A stretch of DNA of 10,642 nt from Pseudomonadota bacterium (lineage in GTDB: Bacteria; Myxococcota; JACRCW01; JAFGSX01). Positions 1 to 10,642 of this stretch are shown one piece after another. Positions within the stretch are counted from its first letter, which is position 1. Every line of letters begins with the position of its first letter. The notes below the pieces were generated by a model. It ran no database searches. It was not told the origin of the DNA and worked only from the letters and a program-made list of their open reading frames with translations. The DNA lies in assembly GCA_043821645.1 (NCBI GenBank), contig JBDRCO010000017.1, positions 1-10,642 of the forward strand, written 5' to 3'. The position numbers were made by a program, and so were the translations under genes.

Positions 1-1
1 G

Positions 2-3000
2 GCCACGGTGCACGTCTTTGTCGACGTGGCCGGCCCCGTGGTCACCCTGTCTGGCTGGGCCAGCAGCGCAGCCAGTACGCGCCTGGTGGCCCTGTCCGCC
101 GCCTCGGGCTCGCCCACCCTGCTCGCCACCGCGACCCAGCCCGACCTGGACTACAACGCCACCACGGATGGCCTGCAGTTCGGCTTCAAGGTGGTGGTCA
201 CGGGCGAGACCGCGGCCAGCCTGGGCAGCAACCCGCAGGCGGGCCTGACCATTCAGGGCATCAGCCAGCCCATCTTCGCGCCCCTGGTGGCGGTGGGGCA
301 GACCTTCGAGGCCGTGTTCGACGCGGCCGGCGCCGGCATCACCCTGGCCGACGGACCGCTGAGCTTCGCCGCCGCGGTCACCGACGCCGCGGGCAACGCG
401 GGCAGCGACACTCGCCACGCCCTGGTGCAGAGCGCGCAGTACTACATCCGCATCGACAGCCCGGCGGACGGCGCCTACGTGCAGAGCGCCATCCTCGACG
501 TGGTGACCACGGGCTCGGTGTTCGACGGCGCGATGTGCGACCTGCTGCTCGACGGCAGCGTCAGCACCTCGCTGGCCATCACCGGCGGCGCCCTGACCTT
601 TGCCAACGTCAACCTGGGCAGCGAGGCCGCGCACACCCTGCAGGTGAGCTGCGACATTGGCGGCGGCGACACCGCGGACAGCGCCGTGCACACGGTGACC
701 GTGGACCTGACCGCGCCGGCGGCGCCGGCCTTTGCCTTTGCGGTCAGCGACACCGCGGGCCACCTGCCCACGGGCGGCTTCTTCAACCTGAGCTGGGCCA
801 GCGCCGACGCCGTGCGCTTTGTGCGCGACATCGACCTCGTGGCCCCGGCCACGGGCAACGCCTGCCTGTACGCCGACCCCGACCTGAACGCCACGCCCAC
901 CAGCCCCAGCGGCACCGCGGTGCACTACGCGGCGCAGGGCCAGAGCGGCGCGCAGTGGATCCTGAACGGCAGCGACTGCACGGCGACCTTCGCCGACGTC
1001 GACCTGGGCCTGCTCAATGATCCTGGCCAGCAGTGGACCCTGCGGGCTGACATCACCGACCTGGCTGGAAATCCCAACTTTGTCGAGACAAGCCTGTGGG
1101 TGGATCGTGTGGCGCCGACGCTGGTGCAGGTCCTCCCCGCATCTGGTGTGACCAATCTTGGCAACGTCTTCGACGATGACCCTGGAACGGCGGGTCTTCA
1201 GATGACGAGCGCGCACCGCTGGAATTTTACAGTCAATGACAGAGCCCTCACGGGTAGTCTGACGCTGTCATTTTCTGGGACAGCCTCAGGCACGGTCATT
1301 CGTCCTGCTGTGAGCGGCACGATTCGTGTCTCAACGAGTTGGGCATCGGATGGCATATACAACGTGACCGTGAGTGTCCCGGACGCTGCTGGCAATATCA
1401 CGGTTCTTGGGCCGACTGCGTACGTCGTCGATCAGGATGTTCCCACGCTGACTCTGCGAGACAGGAACAATGTTGTACTGGCCGAGGAAGACCGGAGCCT
1501 CAGTATTGAACAGGGCTCACCCCTCATGTGGGGCGCTGCCTACGACGTGAGCGCGACCGCTGGCGGGCAGTTCAATTTCAACGTGATCGTGGATGGCGTT
1601 CGCACCGGCTTCACCGTCAGACTCTGCGCCACCAATCCTGGACCAGGCGCGACTGTTGATTGTGCAATATCTGGTGGAGGCGCCGGAATTGCAGTGACGG
1701 GTAAGATCGTCGGTCAGCAGTTCGTGACACCAGGTACGTTGGGGCAAGGTACAGCCACTTTTTCTGCAATCACTCTTGAGCAAGGTATAGGCCAAGTCTA
1801 TGTCGGAACAGACGACGAAGCAGGAAATCATTCTGCGACCTATCCGGTCGAACTCAGTATCGACACTTTTGCACCTGCGCTGAGCACCATAGTGGTTGCG
1901 AACAATATTCCCAACAACGACACCGCCTGTGCCCCAGCCAGCTGTCTGGGAATCGGCGAGAACCCCAGCGACATCGTCGTCACCGTCAGCAGCGCTGGCG
2001 ACAACGAGGACCTGAGCGGTCGCACCGTGACCCTGACCAGCTCCAATAGCGGTCAAGCCGCCATCCCGACCGCCAACCTGACGGGCACACCGCCCACCTT
2101 TACCGCCACCTTTGCCAGCGTCACACTGGCCGAGGGGCAACACCAGCTCACCGCCGCCGTCACCGACGTCATCGGCAACGCCCTAGTGACCACCGGAGCG
2201 GTCAACCCCCAGCGCTTCGTGGACACTGTCGCGCCAAGCATCGTGGCGCACACACCCAGCGATACGGACCAGTACTCGGCCGCGACCTTTGACGTGACAC
2301 TCGAGGCCGCTGACGGCGCCAACCTGGTCGAAGGTTACGCCATCTCGCTGACCAACAGCACCACGGCCAGCACCCAGAACGCCACCATCGCCGTGGGCGC
2401 CAGCAGTGCCCAGTTTGCGGCCATGGCCATGCAGGACAACGCCAGCAACAGCCTCAGCGCCACGATCACTGACCGCGTGGGCAACGTGAGCGCGCCCTAC
2501 AATTTCACCTACGACGTGGACACGGCCGCGCCGGCGCTGGCCCTGCTGGCTCCCACCTCGCCACAGACCCTGAGCGGCAGTGGCGCCTGCCTGACCACCA
2601 ACATCTTCCACGTCTCGCTGACAGGCGTTAACCGTGCGGCCAACACCTTTGTGCAGCTACAGTCGCGCACCTCGGGAAGCGGCGGAAGCTGGGCCATCGT
2701 CACCGACAGCGATCGCGCGGTCAGCGCCGACAGCGCGGACCTGCAGTTCACGGCACCAGATCCCTGCCTCAAGCCTGGTCCGCGTGAGATCCGGGCCAGG
2801 GTGTACGAGACAGACACCCTGCACGAGACCCTGACCGGCTCGGTGACCGTGGACGTGGACCTCGGGGTCCCCGTTGTCACCATCCGCGACCTGAGCGCCA
2901 CCGAGGTGCAGACAGGGCACCGCTTCATCGCGGCCATGGACACCAATGCCACGGTTGGCGTGTACGAGACGGCGCTCGAGGTCGAGTCGCTCAACGCGGC

Positions 3001-5260
3001 CGTGGGCTCGACCGTGCGGCTCATCATCAACGGCAGCCAGGTCGCCACCGACGTGCTGGGGGCCAGCAACACCGCCACCTTCACCGGTGTGGTGCTGCGC
3101 GACTTCGGCGCCACGGGCCTGACCAACATCATCCGCGCCGAGGTGGTCGACGGGCTGGACACAGGCTTCAGCGAGGCCACGGACTGCTACGCTGACGGCG
3201 ATTTGCCGACCATCGCCTTTGTCAGCACGGCACCGCGAACCTACCTGTACGTCGACGACCTGAACCATGCCGCCGTGGGTCTGCAGACCGCCGCTGCCAA
3301 CGGCGTCTCCATCACCACCACGGGCCTCGACGTGGCCACGGTGACTGCGACCTTGAGCTGCACGGGCATGAGCCCGGATGCCACCACCGACGTCACCAGC
3401 AATGCTGGTGAGTTCGTGGACATCGCAGGGCTGCTCACCTCGACAACGGCCTACGTGTGCTCGGTTCGTGTCGCGGACATGACAGGCAACGAGGCAGTTG
3501 GCGCGGCGACCAAGACCCTGACCGTGGACATCGACAGGCCAGACTTGCCGCAGGTGGTGGCCTGCATTGGCGAGGATGCATGTTACGGAGCTGGCTGCAC
3601 ACCCACCGAGAGCTACGAAAAGGACGACAACACCGGCGCGGCCAAGTGCTACGTGGCAGCCGGTTTTGGTGGCGCCTGCGGCAACGGCGTGGACGGCATT
3701 GACGACACGCGCTGCTCACGACGTGGCACCTTCGTGACCCTGACCTGGGTGGCGCCCGGCGACAACGGGAGCAGTGGTGGTGCGGTCAGCGGCTACACCA
3801 TCAGCTACAAGCCCATGGCCATCGCGGCCAGCCCGGCCTGCAGCGACATGAGCGGCGCGACCACGGTGGACACCAACGGCATGACCATCGTGGCGCCAGG
3901 CCAGCAGCAGAGCTTCACCGTCACCGGCCTCGGCGTGCATAAGGACTACTGCTTCGAGGTCACGGCGCAGGACGCGACGGGCAACGCGGCCAAAGGGCCG
4001 CTGGTGCTAAGGCGGGTACCTTTGGTGGTCGCCCATGTCATCAACGGTGCGGGCTCGCCCTTCTTTGGAGCTAGGGTCAATATGAGTGGCGACCTCGATG
4101 GCGATGGCCTTGCTGACTTAGTGATCAGCAACTCAGGTTACACGACCGATAGCACGGCGAATCGAGGCCGAGCTGTTGTGCACTTCGCCGACCTATCGAA
4201 GCCCGATGTGCACATCACTTTCGCTCCCGCGCACGCTGGATCAAGGTTTGGAAACTCTGTCACCACCGGTGACTTCAACGCGGACGGCTACTCGGACGCA
4301 GCCATCTCAGAGATGGGCTGGGGTCGTGTCTACATCTACTTCGGCTCCGCCACGGGCTTCGCTCAGGCGGTGAATCCTGCGTCTCCCGACCCAGGTCATA
4401 ACCCTGATCTGCCGAGCCGAGTTCCCGACGTCATAATCCAGACGGCGACGACAGGTTCGATTGGTCTTGCCAACAGGCCGCTGAATTTGAACGGCGATTC
4501 TGTGGCAGGTCGTCCGCTTGAGGATCTCGTGATCCACAACATCTCCAACAAGGCCGAGTATATCCTCCTGGGCCGAACAACCTGGCCAAGCGCGCTCGAC
4601 ATGGTGAGCGATGCAAGCTGTGTCTTCAGCATCGCAGACTCCACGACTGGCAGCGTCATCATGCTGACTGGGGCAGACTTCGATGCGGATGGCATGGATG
4701 ACCTAGTCGTTCCCGCTACCAGTTCCTCGGCGACAGGTTACGCCTACGTCGTTTACGGCCGGTCAAGCTGGCCCACGTCTCTCGACTTCCAGGGCGCGAA
4801 CGTCTTCAGGTTGAGTAATGGCAACGGGCTGTTCGCTCAGAACGCAATTGCATATCAGGCCACCCAGGATGCCGCTGCTGATCTCGCCCTGTTCGACTCG
4901 ACTCTGGGTGCGCGCAGGGTTTTCGTCTATACCGGAAGCGCGGGTCAGAAGGTTGCGCCCGCGCTGGTCTCGACTATCACGGTCCCCAACGCACAGAACA
5001 ACGTCGAGTCTCTCGGTGATCTGACCTCGGATGGTATCGCAGATCTCTGCATCGCCGATCCGCAGGCCACGACTGAATCAGGCGACCTCCATTTCTACGG
5101 CGGTCTGGCCAGTAGTGTCGCGACCACGAGCGGGACCAGTTATGAGTCCACGCCACAGTTTGGCAGCAGTTTGTCAAGTGGTGGGGACAGCAGTGGCGAC
5201 GGCTATCATGATCTCGCAGTAACGAATGGAACAACGTTAGTAGTCACTATTCTTAAGTGA
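2..5260 (+). CDS. Large extracellular/adhesin-like protein (5'-truncated): tandem Ig-like repeats, Cys-rich insert, fibronectin type III domain, C-terminal FG-GAP beta-propeller
   Basis: The frame is open from base 2, so the real start is probably upstream; >=1750 aa, rich in T/A/G/V/D/S. Recurrent Ig-like motifs (TDAAGN, TDLAGN, PDAAGN, DDEAGN, TDVIGN, TDRVGN, ADMTGN), typically followed by a VDxxAP-like linker. FN3 signature VTLTWVAPGDNG...YTISY...TVTGL...YCFEVTAQD at ~3735-3990. FG-GAP Ca-binding loops GDLDGDGLADL, GDFNADGYSDA, ADFDADGMDDL, GDLTSDGIADL, GDSSGDGYHDL at ~4060-5260. Confidence 0.9.
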   Translation, partial: ATVHVFVDVAGPVVTLSGWASSAASTRLVALSAASGSPTLLATATQPDLDYNATTDGLQFGFKVVVTGETAASLGSNPQAGLTIQGISQPIFAPLVAVGQTFEAVFDAAGAGITLADGPLSFAAAVTDAAGNAGSDTRHALVQSAQYYIRIDSPADGAYVQSAILDVVTTGSVFDGAMCDLLLDGSVSTSLAITGGALTFANVNLGSEAAHTLQVSCDIGGGDTADSAVHTVTVDLTAPAAPAFAFAVSDTAGHLPTGGFFNLSWASADAVRFVRDIDLVAPATGNACLYADPDLNATPTSPSGTAVHYAAQGQSGAQWILNGSDCTATFADVDLGLLNDPGQQWTLRADITDLAGNPNFVETSLWVDRVAPTLVQVLPASGVTNLGNVFDDDPGTAGLQMTSAHRWNFTVNDRALTGSLTLSFSGTASGTVIRPAVSGTIRVSTSWASDGIYNVTVSVPDAAGNITVLGPTAYVVDQDVPTLTLRDRNNVVLAEEDRSLSIEQGSPLMWGAAYDVSATAGGQFNFNVIVDGVRTGFTVRLCATNPGPGATVDCAISGGGAGIAVTGKIVGQQFVTPGTLGQGTATFSAITLEQGIGQVYVGTDDEAGNHSATYPVELSIDTFAPALSTIVVANNIPNNDTACAPASCLGIGENPSDIVVTVSSAGDNEDLSGRTVTLTSSNSGQAAIPTANLTGTPPTFTATFASVTLAEGQHQLTAAVTDVIGNALVTTGAVNPQRFVDTVAPSIVAHTPSDTDQYSAATFDVTLEAADGANLVEGYAISLTNSTTASTQNATIAVGASSAQFAAMAMQDNASNSLSATITDRVGNVSAPYNFTYDVDTAAPALALLAPTSPQTLSGSGACLTTNIFHVSLTGVNRAANTFVQLQSRTSGSGGSWAIVTDSDRAVSADSADLQFTAPDPCLKPGPREIRARVYETDTLHETLTGSVTVDVDLGVPVVTIRDLSATEVQTGHRFIAAMDTNATVGVYETALEVESLNAAVGSTVRLIINGSQVATDVLGASNTATFTGVVLRDFGATGLTNIIRAEVVDGLDTGFSEATDCYADGDLPTIAFVSTAPRTYLYVDDLNHAAVGLQTAAANGVSITTTGLDVATVTATLSCTGMSPDATTDVTSNAGEFVDIAGLLTSTTAYVCSVRVADMTGNEAVGAATKTLTVDIDRPDLPQVVACIGEDACYGAGCTPTESYEKDDNTGAAKCYVAAGFGGACGNGVDGIDDTRCSRRGTFVTLTWVAPGDNGSSGGAVSGYTISYKPMAIAASPACSDMSGATTVDTNGMTIVAPGQQQSFTVTGLGVHKDYCFEVTAQDATGNAAKGPLVLRRVPLVVAHVINGAGSPFFGARVNMSGDLDGDGLADLVISNSGYTTDSTANRGRAVVHFADLSKPDVHITFAPAHAGSRFGNSVTTGDFNADGYSDAAISEMGWGRVYIYFGSATGFAQAVNPASPDPGHNPDLPSRVPDVIIQTATTGSIGLANRPLNLNGDSVAGRPLEDLVIHNISNKAEYILLGRTTWPSALDMVSDASCVFSIADSTTGSVIMLTGADFDADGMDDLVVPATSSSATGYAYVVYGRSSWPTSLDFQGANVFRLSNGNGLFAQNAIAYQATQDAAADLALFDSTLGARRVFVYTGSAGQKVAPALVSTITVPNAQNNVESLGDLTSDGIADLCIADPQATTESGDLHFYGGLASSVATTSGTSYESTPQFGSSLSSGGDSSGDGYHDLAVTNGTTLVVTILK

Positions 5261-5267
5261 GCACAAC

Positions 5268-5444
5268 ATGCAGAAGAAAAAAGAAGACGCGATCAGGAAC
5301 ACGCAACGATGCCTCTCTCGCCGACCCTACGAGCCACCAGCACTTTCATCCGAGCCGGTGTTCGCAGCAGTTGCGGCCTGCTCACAGGGCAGCGACACAA
5401 GCGGTGAAGGCGACTGCAATGGTGGACCCATTGTGTCTGGTTGA
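5268..5444 (+). CDS. Putative RiPP precursor peptide, 58 aa (MQKKKEDAIRNTQRCLSRRPYEPPALSSEPVFAAVAACSQGSDTSGEGDCNGGPIVSG)
   Basis: Translated by hand: ATG at 5268, TGA at 5442-5444; too short for the ORF track. Basic N-terminus, RRPYEPPAL matching the YxxPxL motif of RRE-dependent (lasso-type) leaders, and a Gly/Ser/Asp-rich C-terminal region with two Cys. Ends 15 nt before the rSAM/SPASM ORF. Confidence 0.8.
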   Translation: MQKKKEDAIRNTQRCLSRRPYEPPALSSEPVFAAVAACSQGSDTSGEGDCNGGPIVSG

Positions 5445-5459
5445 GCTCGCGCGCACGAA

Positions 5460-6620
5460 GTGACAATGGCTAGCTTCTTCGATAACATCGAAGCTCGATA
5501 CGCTGCCAGTTGCAGGCTCTTCGCTTTGTCCGTCGATCTGACTTGGCAGTGTAATCTCAAGTGCTTCCACTGCTATCTTTCGCGGAAATCCGCAATTGCC
5601 CAGGCTAGTCGCCTTGATGTCGACATCGCCTTGCGACTCCTCGAGGACGCAGCCGAATTGGGTGCGGTTTCCTTGCTGCTCAGCGGAGGTGAACCGCTAT
5701 TCCATCCCGATATCTGGAAGATACTGAGTCGCGCCAAGAGCTTGAATTTGTTCACGTCGATCTTCACGCACGCAGGGCTGATTGATGAGACATGTGCACG
5801 AGAACTCCGCAGACTGTCCATCCTGGATGTAGGTATCAGTCTCTACAGCAACAGTGCAATGATTCATGACAGCGTGACCGGTGTTGGTGGGTCATTCAAA
5901 AAAACGATGCGCGGCATACGGGCGCTGCTCTCTGAGGGAATTCACGTCACCATCAAGACGCCAGTGCTCGCCGGGTACAACGACAAAACTCTCGAGACCT
6001 TCATGGAATGGGTTGAAGCACTCGGTCCACGAGTGCGCCACTCTCTTTCACCTGATATCACACCCAGGGACGACGGTGACTGGAAGACTTTTCGCTACAA
6101 ACCTGATCTGACGCAGAGCCTCCGAGTCCTAGAGTTGCTAGGAAGGCGCGATCAAAAAGTGGTGCAGGCGAGCCGATTCGACCCTGCGCTCAGAGAAATG
6201 CGACTCGATTCATTTCCGTGCAAGGCAGGGATTAGCAGGCTTCATGTCCGTGCCGATGCAGTGGTCACTCCTTGCATGGAATTGATTCACCCACTCGGCG
6301 ATCTGCATACGGATCGATTGCCAAGTATATGGGAACGTATCAAGGCCCCCGGCGGAATGGCCTTCATGCCACGGCTCGGCGAGATCAAAGGCTGCGCCAC
6401 GTGCGAGCACATAGATCGTTGTAGTCCATGTGTCGGATTGGGGCTCAAGCAGCAAGGCGAGGCCGCCGACACCCCGATCACGAGCTGTTATAGCACCTAT
6501 GCGCGGCTGCTCCATGAGGACCCCGCTTGCCTTCCCCCAAAGCCGCTGCAAGGTGATTCGGTTCATCCCTCCAGTTTCGTGTGCGGATCGAGTTTCTGCA
6601 TGAGGAACTGCACAGACTGA
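5460..6620 (+). CDS. Radical SAM/SPASM-domain protein, probable peptide maturase
   Basis: CxxxCxxC (CNLKCFHC) and SGGEP motif. C-terminal SPASM-type cysteines: C-x17-C ... CATC-x5-C-x2-C-x18-C. The start may be ATG 5466 instead of GTG 5460. No room for an N-terminal RRE domain. Confidence 0.92.
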   Translation: MTMASFFDNIEARYAASCRLFALSVDLTWQCNLKCFHCYLSRKSAIAQASRLDVDIALRLLEDAAELGAVSLLLSGGEPLFHPDIWKILSRAKSLNLFTSIFTHAGLIDETCARELRRLSILDVGISLYSNSAMIHDSVTGVGGSFKKTMRGIRALLSEGIHVTIKTPVLAGYNDKTLETFMEWVEALGPRVRHSLSPDITPRDDGDWKTFRYKPDLTQSLRVLELLGRRDQKVVQASRFDPALREMRLDSFPCKAGISRLHVRADAVVTPCMELIHPLGDLHTDRLPSIWERIKAPGGMAFMPRLGEIKGCATCEHIDRCSPCVGLGLKQQGEAADTPITSCYSTYARLLHEDPACLPPKPLQGDSVHPSSFVCGSSFCMRNCTD

Positions 6621-7363
6621 AGCTGTGGTGGGTAGTAAAAAAAGTAGAGACGCTGGCGAGCGACGTACTCGGAACAGAGCCCGAAGAGCCGGTTCCATTC
6701 GTCGGTTGTTCGTTCGAACTTGGTCAGTTGCTCGAGAACAAGCGCAAGAGCCCTCTGTTCTGTCAGAGCTTCGAGTCTGGCGATGGGATCCTTCTCGAGT
6801 TTCATGAGGAACCTGAGTTGACAAGGTTCCGCGATCTGCTTGCCCGCGAAGTCGCTCAAGAAAGGGGTCATCGCTGTCTTCCATACCCCTGACTCTCTGT
6901 AGACCAACGAGCCGTCGTCAGAGTAGGCTTCTCCGATCAGAGATGAGAAGGTTGATTTTCCGGCTCCAGAACGTCCAGGGCAAAGGACGCCATGACCCAT
7001 GATGCGCGTCGATGCGGCGTGGACAAAGAACCCTTCTGCGTCGAGCATCCAGTGCTCGAGCAGGTGTCGTGTTGCATGAATCACAGCGTCTCGCGAGCCA
7101 AGAGTGCCTTGGTACAGACCGCGAGATAGCTGGACATGCGCAGTGGAGTCCGCGCTCAGTGAACTACCGCACGACGGGATTGCGGTAAAAAGCTGTCCAG
7201 GCCTCTCGGCCGACCTGTCAACCCAGGTGAGAAGCACATGATATGTCGTGTTCTTTGCAGACAGAAAGCCGTCAAAGACATGCGAAACAAGTGCGGCAAT
7301 TTCGGGAACGGATGTCTCGAAACCTACGGTGAGGGGTCCAATGGTGACAGGAAAGGTTGGCAT
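6563..7363 (-). CDS. HprK-related P-loop kinase-like protein (ScmC-like / RiPP-associated)
   Basis: 266 aa with the motif order VHAAS...GVLCPGRSGAGKST (Walker A)...YSDD...TPF, the His / P-loop / DD signature of the HPr kinase-PEPCK fold. Similar proteins are known beside PqqD and rSAM genes. Confidence 0.8.
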   Translation of the reverse strand: MPTFPVTIGPLTVGFETSVPEIAALVSHVFDGFLSAKNTTYHVLLTWVDRSAERPGQLFTAIPSCGSSLSADSTAHVQLSRGLYQGTLGSRDAVIHATRHLLEHWMLDAEGFFVHAASTRIMGHGVLCPGRSGAGKSTFSSLIGEAYSDDGSLVYRESGVWKTAMTPFLSDFAGKQIAEPCQLRFLMKLEKDPIARLEALTEQRALALVLEQLTKFERTTDEWNRLFGLCSEYVARQRLYFFYYPPQLQSVQFLMQKLDPHTKLEG

Positions 7364-7814
7364 TGAATTGCTTGCGCGACGCTACTGGTGTCGTGTTCGC
7401 GAGTTGCTTGAAGGCGGAAATCAGGTCACGATATCTGTCAGCTCCGGATCCATGAGACCACTTCTGCAATCGGGTGACACCATCACCGTGGTCAGAATAT
7501 CCAGAGAGTTACATGCTGGGGACATTTTACTTGTACACATCGGCCACAACAGGCTCAGGCTTCACCGTCTGCTCACGCATAGAGAGCACTTCATTCAGAC
7601 CAAGGGAGATTCATTGGGTAGCGCGGACCGTGAGCAGAGGGTTTCGGACATCCTCGGCATCTGCGTCGCCATCAACGGCCACCGCATCGACACGCCGACC
7701 TGGCGCTTCGTGAACCGGCAGATCGCTCGCATCTCGCCTTACTCCCACCAGCTTCGCGCTCCCATCCGGGTCCTCGGGCGCATTCGCCGCGCCCTGGGTC
7801 TTTGGTGGCTGTGA
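7341..7814 (+). CDS. S24/S26-family (signal peptidase I-like) peptidase, apparently without an N-terminal membrane anchor
   Basis: Motifs GSMRP (catalytic Ser), GD, LHRL (His, as in Ser/His-type S26 enzymes) and TKGD. Start uncertain: ATG 7341 follows GAGGGG at 7331-7336; TTG 7368 is an alternative; the ORF-track start at 7248 overlaps the kinase too deeply. Confidence 0.8.
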   Translation: MVTGKVGIELLARRYWCRVRELLEGGNQVTISVSSGSMRPLLQSGDTITVVRISRELHAGDILLVHIGHNRLRLHRLLTHREHFIQTKGDSLGSADREQRVSDILGICVAINGHRIDTPTWRFVNRQIARISPYSHQLRAPIRVLGRIRRALGLWWL

Positions 7815-7856
7815 ACCGGGACACCGTTCATCGTTTCTGGTGGCCCGGATCGCTCC

Positions 7857-7968
7857 CCTTGTCGCCCGCACGGGCCTCCTTGTCGGTCCACTGGCCTTCC
7901 TTGTCGCCCCGCAGGGCGTCCTTGTAGGCCTGTCAGGGCTTCCTTGTAGCTCGCGGCCGGGCGCTTGT
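7857..7968. repeat. Degenerate 21-bp tandem repeat with a CCTTGT core
   Basis: CCTTGT begins at 7857, 7878, 7899, 7920 and 7942, and GCTTGT at 7963 (spacings 21, 21, 21, 22, 21). Confidence 0.85.
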
Positions 7969-8020
7969 CACCTCTGTGCCGCGGCCGTGCACCGGGCCCG
8001 GGTTCGGCTGCGCAGCGGTG

Positions 8021-8237
8021 GGCTTCCGTCGCAGCGGAACGTGATCCGCGCCACGGGTCAGGGCTTCCGATACACCTGACTGTGATCCGCGCCACGGGTC
8101 AGGGCTTCCGTAGCGCCCGGAACGTGATCCGTGCCACGGGTCCCGGCTTCCCAATAGCGGGGGAGGGCTTCCCAATACCAGGGAAGGGCTTGCCAATGGC
8201 GGGGAAGGGCTTGCCAATAGGAGGGGAAGGGCTTGCC
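8021..8237. repeat. 41-42-bp tandem repeat (3 copies) merging into a 21-bp tandem repeat with a GGCTT(C/G)CCAAT core
   Basis: The 29-mer GTGATCCGCGCCACGGGTCAGGGCTTCCG is identical at 8041 and 8082 and degenerate at 8124. GGCTT begins at 8021, 8062, 8103, 8145, 8166, 8187, 8208 and 8230. Confidence 0.9.
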
Positions 8238-8263
8238 CGCAGGTGGGACCGGCCACTGGACCT

Positions 8264-8671
8264 TCATGCCAGCAGGACCTGAACGACCTGCTGAAAATCT
8301 CTGAGGCACTGCCTCTCGGTGCGCACCGCCTCGAACACCGTGTCGAGGTCCAGCCTGCGGTAGGCGTGGGCGACCAGGTTGCGCAGGCCTATCCAGCCCT
8401 CGATGGCGACCGAGAGCTCGGTCGTGAGCAGACCGGCCTCGGCAAGACGGCGCACGCCATCGCGGTAGCTCCCGGCTTGCTCGAGACCGCGCTCGACGAT
8501 GAGAAGATTGCACAGATCGACCAGGTCCTGCTGCACCCGGTACACCGCGAACAGCACCATGTTCTGCACGTCCCGGTCGCGCTCGAAGCGCTCGCCGGTC
8601 ACCTCGCGGGCGTAGCGATCCAGGTCGTCCAGATCGCGGCGCAGGGCCACCAGCAGCTCTTCGCGGCTCAT
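8264..8671 (-). CDS. HEPN (DUF86/HepT-like) RNase toxin, 135 aa
   Basis: MSREELL...GLRNLVAHAYRRLD carries the R-x4-H-x-Y HEPN motif. Its ATG (8671-8669) overlaps the stop codon of the upstream MNT gene (ATGA coupling). The ORF-track extension to 9040 is spurious. Confidence 0.9.
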   Translation of the reverse strand: MSREELLVALRRDLDDLDRYAREVTGERFERDRDVQNMVLFAVYRVQQDLVDLCNLLIVERGLEQAGSYRDGVRRLAEAGLLTTELSVAIEGWIGLRNLVAHAYRRLDLDTVFEAVRTERQCLRDFQQVVQVLLA

Positions 8672-9108
8672 GTCGGCGCCGTCCGCAGCATGCCGCTCAC
8701 CCGCTGGATCGACGCGGCCAGGTCCTGGTAGTCGCTGAGCACCCGCGCCTCGAACTCGATGCGGGCTTCGCGGTCCGCCTCGAACACCCGCACGCCCCCG
8801 CGCAGAACCGCAAAGGTGAACGCCACGTCGTCCGCGGTCAGCTCGCGCAGGTCCACGGGGAGGTCCGTGCCCAGAGCGTCCTCGAGCTCGCGCGTCAGCA
8901 CGGCGCGCTCGGACAGGCGAAGCGCGCGCTGTGACCTGAGGACGAGGCCGACATCCAGATCGCGCGCCCGCTGTGCCCGGCAGGCTGAACCGTACAGGTA
9001 GGCTGCTGCCACGTCGTACCGGCTGAGCACCTGGTTCCAACGCGTGCGCGCCCGCTCGAGCAGGTCGGGCGGCACAGAACGCATCGGGTGCTCGTCGTGG
9101 TCAGCCAT
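8668..9108 (-). CDS. Minimal nucleotidyltransferase (MntA-like antitoxin), ~146 aa
   Basis: AYLYGS-x8-DLDVG and VDLREL motifs of the Pol-beta-type minimal nucleotidyltransferases, directly upstream of the HEPN gene. Start ATG 9108 (alternative 9084). Confidence 0.88.
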   Translation of the reverse strand: MADHDEHPMRSVPPDLLERARTRWNQVLSRYDVAAAYLYGSACRAQRARDLDVGLVLRSQRALRLSERAVLTRELEDALGTDLPVDLRELTADDVAFTFAVLRGGVRVFEADREARIEFEARVLSDYQDLAASIQRVSGMLRTAPT

Positions 9109-9146
9109 GGGCCCAGTGTAGCTGACGCGCTTGACGGCCATCAAGC
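9109..9146 (-). promoter_or_regulatory. Putative sigma70 promoter for a leaderless MNT-HEPN transcript, overlapped by an 18-bp palindrome
   Basis: The minus strand reads TTGATG (9144-9139), 18 nt, TACACT (9120-9115), 6 nt, ATG (9108), with no SD. The palindrome GCTTGACGGCCATCAAGC (9129-9146) covers the -35 element. Confidence 0.55.
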
Positions 9147-9234
9147 CGCCGCAGGCACATCCGCCTGAGAGGCAGGCCAAGGCCGGAGAGGGCAAGGGCT
9201 CCAGGCAACTTCGGGGTACTGTGGGCCGCGGCCC

Positions 9235-9354: not shown

Positions 9355-10642
9355 ATGGCAGCACCACCTACGCACTCTTCCCGCGGCCTCGGCTGGCTGG
9401 TGGCAGCCATCGCCCTGGGCGCGGCCATCGCGGTGGCGGGCTGGTGGTTTCAGCGTAGCGAAGTGCAGCGCCTGCGCCAGGTCGAGCTGGACAGGCTGCA
9501 CGCCATAGGCGACCTCAAGGCCCAGTGGATCGCGGACTGGCGCGAGGAGCTGCTCACCGACGCCCGGCGCGCGACGCGCGGACCCTACCTCGTCGAGCAC
9601 GCGGGGCTGCTGGTGGCGGGCCAGGCCTCGGACGAGGACCGCGAGCAGCTGCAGGCGCGGCTGCGGATCGAGCTCGAGGCCTTTCACTACACCCAGGTCC
9701 TGCTCGTGACGCCGGAGCTGCGCGTGGCGCTGGCCGTGCCTGACACACCCAGTGCGCCGGGCGAGGCCACGGCCAAGGCAGTGCGGGAGGCACTCGCGAG
9801 CCAGCGGGTCGCGCTGTCCGAGATGTTCCACAGCGACACAGGACTCATCGTGCTGGACGCGGTGGCCCCCATCCTCGATCCGCAGGGGCAGGCGGTGGCC
9901 GCCCTGGTGCTGCGCACCGACGCCTCGGTCGAGCTGTACCCGCGCGTGCAGTCCTGGCCCCTGCCGAGCCGCACGGCCGAGTCCCTGATCCTGAAGCAGC
10001 AGGACGACGCGTGCTCTTTCTCAACGAGCTGCGCCACCAGGCGGGCACAGCCCTGAGTCTGAGCTTGCCCATGAGCCGCGACGACCTGCCGGCCACGCGC
10101 GCGGTGCTGGGCCAGACCGGAGCTGTCGAGGGGCGCGACTACCGCGGCGTCCCCGTCATCGCCGACGTGCGGCCCATCCCGAACTCGCCCTGGTTCCTGG
10201 TGGCCAAGGTCGACCGGGACGAGGCCTTTGCCGAGATCAACCGCCACGCCCTGCAGCTCGCCTTGCTCGTCGGCAGCCTGATCCTGTTCGTCGTCGCCGC
10301 CCTGGGCCTGGTGTACCGGCAGCGGCACGCGAGCCTGCTGCAGGCCATGCTGGACAGCGAGCGCCAGCGCGCCCTGGCCCAGCACAGCCTGCGCACCACC
10401 CTGTACAGCATCGGCGACGCGGTGATCGCCACCGATCGCGAGGGTCGGGTGCAGGTGATGAACCCGGTGGCCGAGAACCTGACCGGCTGGCGCGAGGACG
10501 AGGCACGAGGGCGTTCCCTCGAGGAGGTCTTCGACATCTTCACCGAGGCCACGCGTGCCAGGGTCGAGAGTCCTGTGCAGCGCGTGCTGCGCGATGGCGC
10601 GGTGGTGGGCCTGGCCAACCACACCCTGCTCAGGGCCCGGGA
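9355..10642 (+). CDS. Membrane sensor protein (TM - Cache-like extracytoplasmic domain - TM - PAS), probably a histidine kinase or GGDEF protein; 1-nt frameshift at ~10010; 3'-truncated
   Basis: ATG 9355 follows GGGGGGAAG. TM1 is LGWLVAAIALGAAIAVAGWWF. The first frame stops at 10056, but the frame starting at 10011 continues VLFLNELRH...GRDYRGVPV...PWFLVAKVDRDEAF (Cache-like C-terminus), then TM2 LALLVGSLILFVVAALGLVY, then PAS TLYSIGDAVIATDREGRVQVMNPVAENLTGW, and stays open to the window end. Confidence 0.85.

Follow-up and report, generated by a model that had tools for sequence, protein, structure and literature searches.

Linear polyphosphorylated peptides (LPP), made by the lppA-K-B-S-D-N genes of Paenibacillus alginolyticus, are the product of a pathway first described in 2026. 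This pathway uses an RRE that is a discrete protein and a precursor whose YxxP leader has its Tyr at -16. Its enzymes include a peptidase of the SipW-like kind and LppK, a kinase related to HprK that phosphorylates core Ser3 (PMC13381572). BsfK of Bradymonas likewise targets core Ser3 (PMC10368454), and the PadeK-type kinases act on a C-terminal Ser (PMC9266682). In the LPP supplement, radical SAM and FG-GAP occur solely as headings in a matrix of domains (PMC13381572). Radical SAM/SPASM enzymes are known from other systems: CteB, PapB and Tte1186 have three Cys on AuxI, leaving a site for the substrate thiol (PMC10177961), and anSME and SuiB have four AuxI Cys ligands and AhbD an eighth Cys (PMC10452713).

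The locus analysed here lies on a window of 10,642 nucleotides (the whole stretch of DNA that was analysed), which is contig C17 of a 7.07 Mb genome. By analogy with the systems above, its cassette is likely an LPP-type chassis plus a thioether-type radical SAM enzyme, standing outside LPP by its leader consensus and by the lack of an NTP transferase and an exporter among the window ORFs. The features on which this view rests are collected in Table 1.

Table 1. Features of the cassette, numbered by window position unless a contig is named
Feature	Position	Strand	Basis or detail
Giant Ig-like/Fn3/FG-GAP surface protein, C-terminal part	8..5260	+	Pfam
Precursor peptide, 58 aa	5268..5444	+	Translation, profile match, family conservation
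RRE-binding motif Tyr21-x-x-Pro24-x-Leu26	5328..5345	+	Tyr21 and Pro24 invariant, 71 aligned members
Ala36, predicted last leader residue (P1)	5373..5375	+	Ala at -1 in 140/148 (best-150 set); cleavage site predicted from LPP
Predicted core Ala37-Gly58, 22 aa	5376..5441	+	Predicted boundaries
Radical SAM/SPASM enzyme	5460..6620	+	CxxxCxxC at 31/35/38; no fused RRE
HprK/PEPCK-fold kinase-like protein	6563..7363	-	His115, Lys136, Asp149, Asp150; antisense to rest of cassette
Soluble S24/S26 (archaeal/SipW-type) signal-peptidase-like protein	7341..7814	+	Ser codon 7449, His codon 7563
Stand-alone RRE	about C99:2186-2491		PF05402, 72.7 bits; precedes giant gene's likely lipoprotein-type start

No RRE was found within the window. 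The 3' end of contig C99 aligns to window positions 1-277 at 95.7% (12 mismatches), and it is likely that C99 carries the 5' part of the giant gene together with the RRE upstream of the window, the two contigs joining across a gap. The genome has three PqqD genes, on C3, C87 and C99, and three cassettes; the two paralogous cassettes (C87:181837-187944 and C3:8400-15970) have three-Cys precursors ending in Ser, and each is trailed by a large secreted protein. In related genomes the RRE gene comes first, then those of the giant FG-GAP lipoprotein, the precursor, the kinase, the radical SAM enzyme and the peptidase, with the last three often inverted.

The 58-aa ORF is real and not a chance reading frame. 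It lies 7 nt downstream of the stop of the giant-protein gene and 15 nt upstream of the radical SAM start, and when the 118,907 stop-to-stop segments in the genome are searched with a profile of 148 relatives that leaves out the window peptide, the ORF scores E 7.8e-10 (runner-up E 0.1), these relatives having been gathered by a seed profile that included the window peptide. A contig of the public run X1, possibly the source sample itself, is identical to the window over 5294-5501. The precursor region yielded no informative repeats, promoter or terminator.

Judged by profile similarity, the peptide is a member of a large unnamed precursor family that lacks a Pfam or NCBIfam model among those scanned: neither the precursor nor any of 19 relatives matched an NCBIfam model, a Pfam scan of 71 family members gave no real family, and a similarity search with the precursor sequence directly returned zero homologue candidates. 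Our profile, built from 8 precursors, reaches 477 clusters at E<=1e-3, and family features were scored on 148 of the best 150 representatives among these clusters, two long proteins being excluded (the best-150 set). The equivalent of Cys38, which we call the junction Cys, occurs in 143/148 of these representatives, at least two Cys in 145/148, exactly two Cys in 132/148 cores and a terminal Ser in 140/148. The loop between the Cys residues is 5-20 residues long and unconserved, whereas the terminal Ser follows the last Cys at a distance of 5-8 in 122 of these 140 and of 7 in 72, the same as from Cys50 to Ser57 in the window peptide. Two representatives and locus L045 have the second Cys and terminal Ser without the junction Cys. 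Since a family-profile sample is biased to Cys and Ser features, a leader-only DNA-pattern sample, which carries no core bias, was added; its 66 matches left 17 non-redundant precursors, all with the junction Cys and at least two Cys, 13 with a terminal Ser and 2 with a penultimate Ser. Both Cys are thus conserved across aligned homologues, and the lack of conservation that the sequence-only reading had set out in advance as grounds against its proposal is not what we find. Its view that aromatic cyclophane chemistry is unlikely holds as well, because no aromatic residue is conserved (69/148 cores of the best-150 set are aromatic-free and Trp is present in 3). One protein, P0098 (738 aa), has ten stretches that match the precursor profile and is possibly a multi-leader polyprotein.

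The translation of the window copy bears out the composition first given for it: Tyr21-x-x-Pro24-x-Leu26 in the leader, then Cys38 and Cys50 (C-x11-C), and in residues 38-58 four Ser, one Thr, two Asp, one Glu, one Asn and one Gln, with no Trp, Tyr, Phe or His. The acidic residues are Asp43, Glu47 and Asp49, and the landmarks of the predicted core are Cys38 at +2, Ser39 at +3, Cys50, Ser57 and an extra Gly58. That earlier description had omitted a third Cys, Cys15, which lies in the leader and has an equivalent in merely 6/148 relatives of the best-150 set. The window copy differs from all 148 of these relatives at both ends, by the Cys at +2 and by Gly58: Cys at +2 and a Ser-Gly ending are each found in 0/148.

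Among characterised systems, the leader is closest to that of LPP rather than lasso. The sequence-only reading is supported in so far as the peptide is a precursor of the RiPP type and its leader is of the kind that an RRE binds. Its label of lasso-type leader fits less well, and neither a macrolactam cyclase nor a B2 protease occurs among the nine window ORFs. When Tyr is set to -16, Ala stands at -1 in 140/148 and Cys at +3 in 137/148 relatives of the best-150 set, and 56/148 have no Ser or Thr at +2 to +4. The window peptide is one residue short in this register, with Tyr21 at -16, Ala36 at -1, Cys38 at +2 and Ser39 at +3, and by analogy its core probably starts at Ala37 rather than Cys38. 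At position -2 it has Val35, where the family has Leu, Met, Val or Ala and lasso leaders have Thr (or Ile/Val). Two other readings of this junction were rejected. A lipobox in V-A-A-C lacks a hydrophobic stretch and is unconserved, and a cut right before Cys38, yielding an N-terminal Cys that would condense with a Ser-derived aldehyde, was abandoned because the LPP register puts the conserved Ala at -1.

As far as the available text of PMC13381572 goes, the likeness to LPP covers the discrete RRE, the YxxP leader, the HprK-like kinase, the SipW-like peptidase with its Ser and His and the lack of a lasso cyclase, and Ser39 of the window peptide coincides with the phosphorylated Ser3 when Tyr is at -16. 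The differences are that the window cassette adds the radical SAM/SPASM enzyme and the giant FG-GAP lipoprotein, that its precursor has a two-Cys core with a tail Ser, and that the LPP leader described there ends in Phe-Glu-Thr (-3 to -1), whereas here there is a conserved Ala at -1 and the family has Phe-Glu at -5/-4. No NTP transferase or MsbA-like exporter, both LPP features, was found among the nine window ORFs scanned, and the single PF14907 gene of the genome lies on C97, unlinked to the cassette.

The kinase shares the His-Lys-Asp-Asp motif with PadeK, ThcoK and PsmK (PMC9266682) and with BsfK (PMC10368454), and the precursor shares the YxxPxL leader of these systems as described in the available text; unlike in the lasso-kinase systems, Ser57 of the window peptide is not terminal, and the cyclase and B2 protease are absent from the window ORFs. 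The predicted kinase model has a PEPCK/HprK fold (Z 12.0 to 9.3). Its gene shares 58 bp with the 3' end of the radical SAM gene and, on the other side, touches or runs into the start of the peptidase gene (6563-7814), which is ATG 7341 or TTG 7368. The peptidase matches TIGR02228 at 28.4 bits (E 1.3e-6), under the cut-off of 51.85, with the Ser and His motifs kept. Members of the kinase family occur in 205/401 sampled genomes of the phylum.

SynChlorMet cassettes (TIGR04248-TIGR04251) also combine a PqqD protein, the kinase-like ScmC and radical SAM/SPASM enzymes, and their models score weakly against the neighbours of the precursor. The scores fall far below the cut-offs throughout (18.2 of 125 bits for ScmC, 39 of 100 for ScmD, 82 of 400 for ScmE and 91.3 of 400 for ScmF), and a SynChlorMet cassette has two radical SAM enzymes, against one in the window cassette.

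Relatives that match the radical SAM enzyme over most of its length do not exceed about 33% identity (the best is 31% over 89%), and a query with it against genome contigs found one locus only, unrelated. Its SPASM region holds seven Cys, at 254, 272, 312, 315, 321, 324 and 343; by analogy, Cys254, Cys272 and Cys324 would ligate AuxI, and Cys312, Cys315, Cys321 and Cys343 the other cluster. In this it resembles CteB, Tte1186 and PapB, which in the available text of PMC10177961 have a seven-Cys SPASM domain in which three Cys ligate AuxI and the spacing is nearly identical; it differs from them in having no fused RRE, and its precursor in having no conserved Asp/Glu/Thr acceptor. The spacings of the last seven Cys also resemble those given for AhbD (PMC10452713), and the eighth Cys is absent from the window enzyme. 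Among 44 relatives with the seven-Cys motif, 11 carry one more Cys, 15-45 residues upstream, which could complete the ligation of AuxI, and a subgroup (L030, L086, L090 and L097) has just the three C-terminal Cys of AuxI and no AuxII motif. The top NCBIfam scores belong to AhbD/NirJ2-type models, all far below cut-off, with MftC also among the top; the PapB model NF047865 is not reached. The predicted structure (pLDDT 89.7) aligns in VIA-align first with CteB (Z 26.5, rmsd 4.0, 311 aligned), to which its sequence identity is 14%, then with ChlB, anSME and SkfB at Z 25.4-25.1 (anSME 25.2), and far lower with EpeE (Z 18.9). Foldseek ranks PqqE and SuiB first. Because the Z scores are close and Foldseek prefers PqqE and SuiB, the fold leaves the chemistry undecided. 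In a FastTree-only tree the window enzyme sits on a long branch and its placement has no support. The seven-Cys SPASM domain fits thioether chemistry by analogy, and to this extent agrees with the Cys-to-carbon thioethers suggested by the sequence-only reading; the pairing of Cys38 with Asp43 does not share in that agreement, since Asp or Glu occurs four residues past the junction Cys in only 11/130 two-Cys cores of the best-150 set and Asp43 is therefore not a family feature.

Cassettes that lack the radical SAM gene amount to a natural knockout, and they indicate the junction Cys and the tail Ser as what the enzyme needs, as well as a site for the kinase. Our first set holds 12 cassettes that keep the RRE or giant protein, the kinase and usually the peptidase in a locus without the radical SAM gene. 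Their precursors have a terminal Ser in 0/12, Cys at +2 to +4 in 1/12 (4/12 allowing +5) and Ser or Thr at +2 to +4 in 11/12, against 7% Ser/Thr deeper in the core; the corresponding counts with the enzyme are 24/33 for terminal Ser, 33/33 for Cys and 13/33 for Ser or Thr. A second set comprised 40 new loci picked by the kinase alone, of which 22 yielded an adjacent precursor and were tallied manually. With the enzyme, the last residue is Ser in 8/9 and Thr in the ninth, and the junction Cys stands at +4/+5; without it, 0/13 end in Ser and 12/13 have Ser or Thr at +2 to +4. Pooled, a terminal Ser is found in 0/25 without and 32/42 with the radical SAM gene, and Ser or Thr at +2 to +4 in 23/25 without it. 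L046 has A-L-A-S in place of the A-L-A-C of typical members, and the cores of L217 and L218, both lacking the radical SAM gene, begin Phe-Cys-Thr (Cys +2, Thr +3), resembling the Ala-Cys-Ser of the window peptide. Precursors that have the enzyme and no tail Ser are found in L087, L135 and L143. The kinases of the first set without the enzyme retain intact His, Walker A and Asp motifs. In other words, the kinase is kept and the tail Ser is lost where the radical SAM gene is missing, so the tail Ser tracks the radical SAM enzyme and not the kinase.

Genome-wide searches found no cassette-type radical SAM enzyme in 11/12 genomes of the first set (best <=187 bits) and none above 225 bits in 12/13 of the second, where cassette-type enzymes outside the search model score 277-339 bits; the twelfth genome of the first set has such an enzyme in a separate cassette. 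These cassettes are not an independent sample, because 10/13 kinases from loci lacking the radical SAM gene group on a single branch (97% SH-aLRT in a quick search) of a tree that covers the first set, the second lying outside it; perhaps two or three independent losses are therefore represented. A Fisher test (p 1e-5) was set aside since the genomes are kin. Excluded from the tallies were L032, L045, L179 and L180 (at the end of a contig or with a context that is not clear), L083, L089, L096 and L098 (locus without a radical SAM or kinase gene) and L041-L043, L047 and L048 (without an adjacent precursor), as well as 18/40 loci of the second set in which no precursor was detected, and two candidates there that lie antisense. 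In L041, L042, L047 and L048 recA and one further gene are followed by kinase, radical SAM enzyme and peptidase, with no adjacent precursor or RRE detected. The cassettes L033, L034, L094, L165-L168 and L216-L220, which have the RRE, giant FG-GAP lipoprotein, precursor, kinase and peptidase and no radical SAM gene, resemble direct LPP counterparts; they have Ser or Thr at core +3 or +4, and several are in complete genomes.

We tentatively propose, at somewhat less than even odds for the scheme as a whole, that the window holds an LPP-like radical SAM cassette whose product has a thioether from a core Cys, with Cys50 favoured, to Ser57, a SipW-like cut after Ala36 and a phosphate on Ser39. The RRE on C99 would very probably bind Tyr21-Leu26. 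From the LPP register, the peptidase would probably cut after Ala36, releasing Ala37-Gly58, and a similarly good case can be made from co-occurrence that the radical SAM enzyme acts on a Cys and the tail Ser. That the product would be a thioether is only slightly favoured. We give a modest preference to Cys50 over Cys38 because of the tight Cys-to-Ser spacing and the members that keep only the second Cys. Use of core position 3 by the kinase, here Ser39, has perhaps an even chance, and use of Ser57 is clearly less likely; were Ser39 the phosphorylated residue, Ser57 need not be terminal in the window copy. From gene order, the mature peptide may act together with the giant FG-GAP lipoprotein, whose gene stands between those of the RRE and the precursor. 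A complex prediction of an FG-GAP domain with precursor residues 29-58 scored 0.02 (mark 0.32) and is evidence neither way.

Several observations count against this proposal. The two-Cys cores that make up most of the best-150 set, and the many Cys pairs in cassettes lacking the radical SAM gene, are compatible with a plain disulfide, and the enzyme has no characterised close relative. Moreover, in typical members position +3 is Cys and 56/148 of the best-150 set have no Ser or Thr at +2 to +4, and their kinase therefore needs another site; this is possibly the terminal Ser directly, or the terminal Ser after it has been tied to Cys3. A bolder hypothesis, which we consider rather unlikely in full, is a new RiPP class in which the radical SAM enzyme would bridge the C-terminal Ser and a Cys of the core, the kinase would read position 3, a Cys/Ser swap there would accompany gain or loss of the enzyme, and the ring would be a dedicated ligand or small subunit of the giant integrin-like surface lipoprotein in its operon. 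A link from Cys to a terminal Ser, if true, would add a new type of ring. The placing of the peptide genes on both sides of a giant surface lipoprotein gene suggests that the product has a role at the cell surface and is not an antibiotic. The family has at least 477 clusters and its kinase is widespread in the phylum, yet no description of the form bearing the radical SAM enzyme was found in the open-access literature, subscription papers lying outside the search.

The sequence-only reading had taken Ser57 as the kinase target by analogy with paeninodin, and a version of this idea is the alternative that survives best, although it is unlikely: the kinase would phosphorylate Ser57, Cys38 and Cys50 would form a disulfide or the thioethers lie elsewhere, and the tail Ser would follow the radical SAM enzyme by coupling or co-inheritance. 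The frequency of the terminal Ser in the best-150 set (140/148), the His-Lys-Asp-Asp motif as in PadeK and ThcoK, and the Cys at +3 of typical members, which offers no hydroxyl, all speak for it. In the window copy, however, Gly58 follows Ser57 and the paeninodin-type C-terminal Ser is absent, whereas PadeK-type enzymes act on the C-terminal Ser (PMC9266682), and it is Ser39 that falls at the Ser3 site of LppK and BsfK. Intact kinases also persist where no precursor ends in Ser (0/25), and in four related contigs, L104, L111, L112 and L115, the terminal Ser is kept while the locus lacks a kinase gene, though the kinase could act in trans. We therefore consider Ser57 a doubtful target.

Two further alternatives are quite unlikely, to about the same degree. 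The first joins the junction Cys to the tail Ser in a near head-to-tail thioether, brings the Ser hydroxyl to core position 3 for the kinase, and has Cys3 revert to Ser or Thr when the enzyme is lost. This single model covers Cys +3 and terminal Ser with the enzyme and Ser/Thr +3 without it; the A-L-A-S of L046 fits it, as do the three-Cys cores of the paralogous cassettes, in which one Cys is left unpaired. A loop of 5-20 residues would nevertheless give widely varying ring sizes, a few members without the junction Cys still have the second Cys and Ser, and the window copy has its Cys at +2.

The other has the enzyme oxidise the tail Ser without a thiol, to formylglycine as in anSME/AtsB or by decarboxylation as in MftC/AhbD, with the Cys pair forming a disulfide loop. 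Ser-to-formylglycine conversion and C-terminal decarboxylation are both among SPASM reactions (PMC10114670, available text), AhbD and MftC are among the top NCBIfam models, anSME trails the top fold match by no more than 1.3 Z, the last seven Cys have spacings resembling those of AhbD, and even Cys counts predominate. Yet AuxI of anSME is fully ligated and AhbD has the eighth Cys (PMC10452713, available text), which the window enzyme lacks; decarboxylation at Ser57 requires a free C-terminus and would be blocked by Gly58; and loss of the junction Cys together with the enzyme is left unexplained.

It is improbable that the family is real and the window copy a drifting or decaying cassette whose odd ends, Cys +2 and Gly58, mean nothing. 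Either oddity is found in 0/148 of the best-150 set, the kinase and radical SAM branches are the longest or near-longest (the kinase, in a quick tree, with no supported placement), the kinase is antisense, and GC is 0.55-0.58 in the maturase genes against 0.67 in the genome, the giant gene being a mosaic of 0.57-0.73 blocks (window 8-7814). Against this, every frame is open and the catalytic motifs are all intact, at least one maturase gene is antisense to the precursor in 15/28 other cassettes, and L217 and L218 share the Cys +2, Thr +3 start.

Least probable is an epimerisation, or a ranthionine of the PapB/QhpD type that links Cys38 with Asp43 or with one of the other acidic residues: Asp43, Glu47 and Asp49 are available and PapB takes C-x0-6-D in vitro (PMC9413430, available text), which also weakens the contrast that had been drawn between C-x4-D here and C-x3-D in PapB substrates, but Asp or Glu occurs at x3 to x7 past the junction Cys in just 11-15/130 two-Cys cores, the conserved C-x3-D/E motif of the PapB type is absent from the window core, and the epimerase EpeE is a far poorer fold match than the top one.

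Beyond the cassette, imperfect repeats of short length, spaced at 21 nt and 41 nt, lie just past its end at window 7836-8241, followed by a HepT/MntA type VII toxin-antitoxin pair at 8264-9195 on the minus strand. A membrane sensor-like gene shifts frame at about 10000-10056, by a frameshift or an assembly error, and is then open to the contig end.
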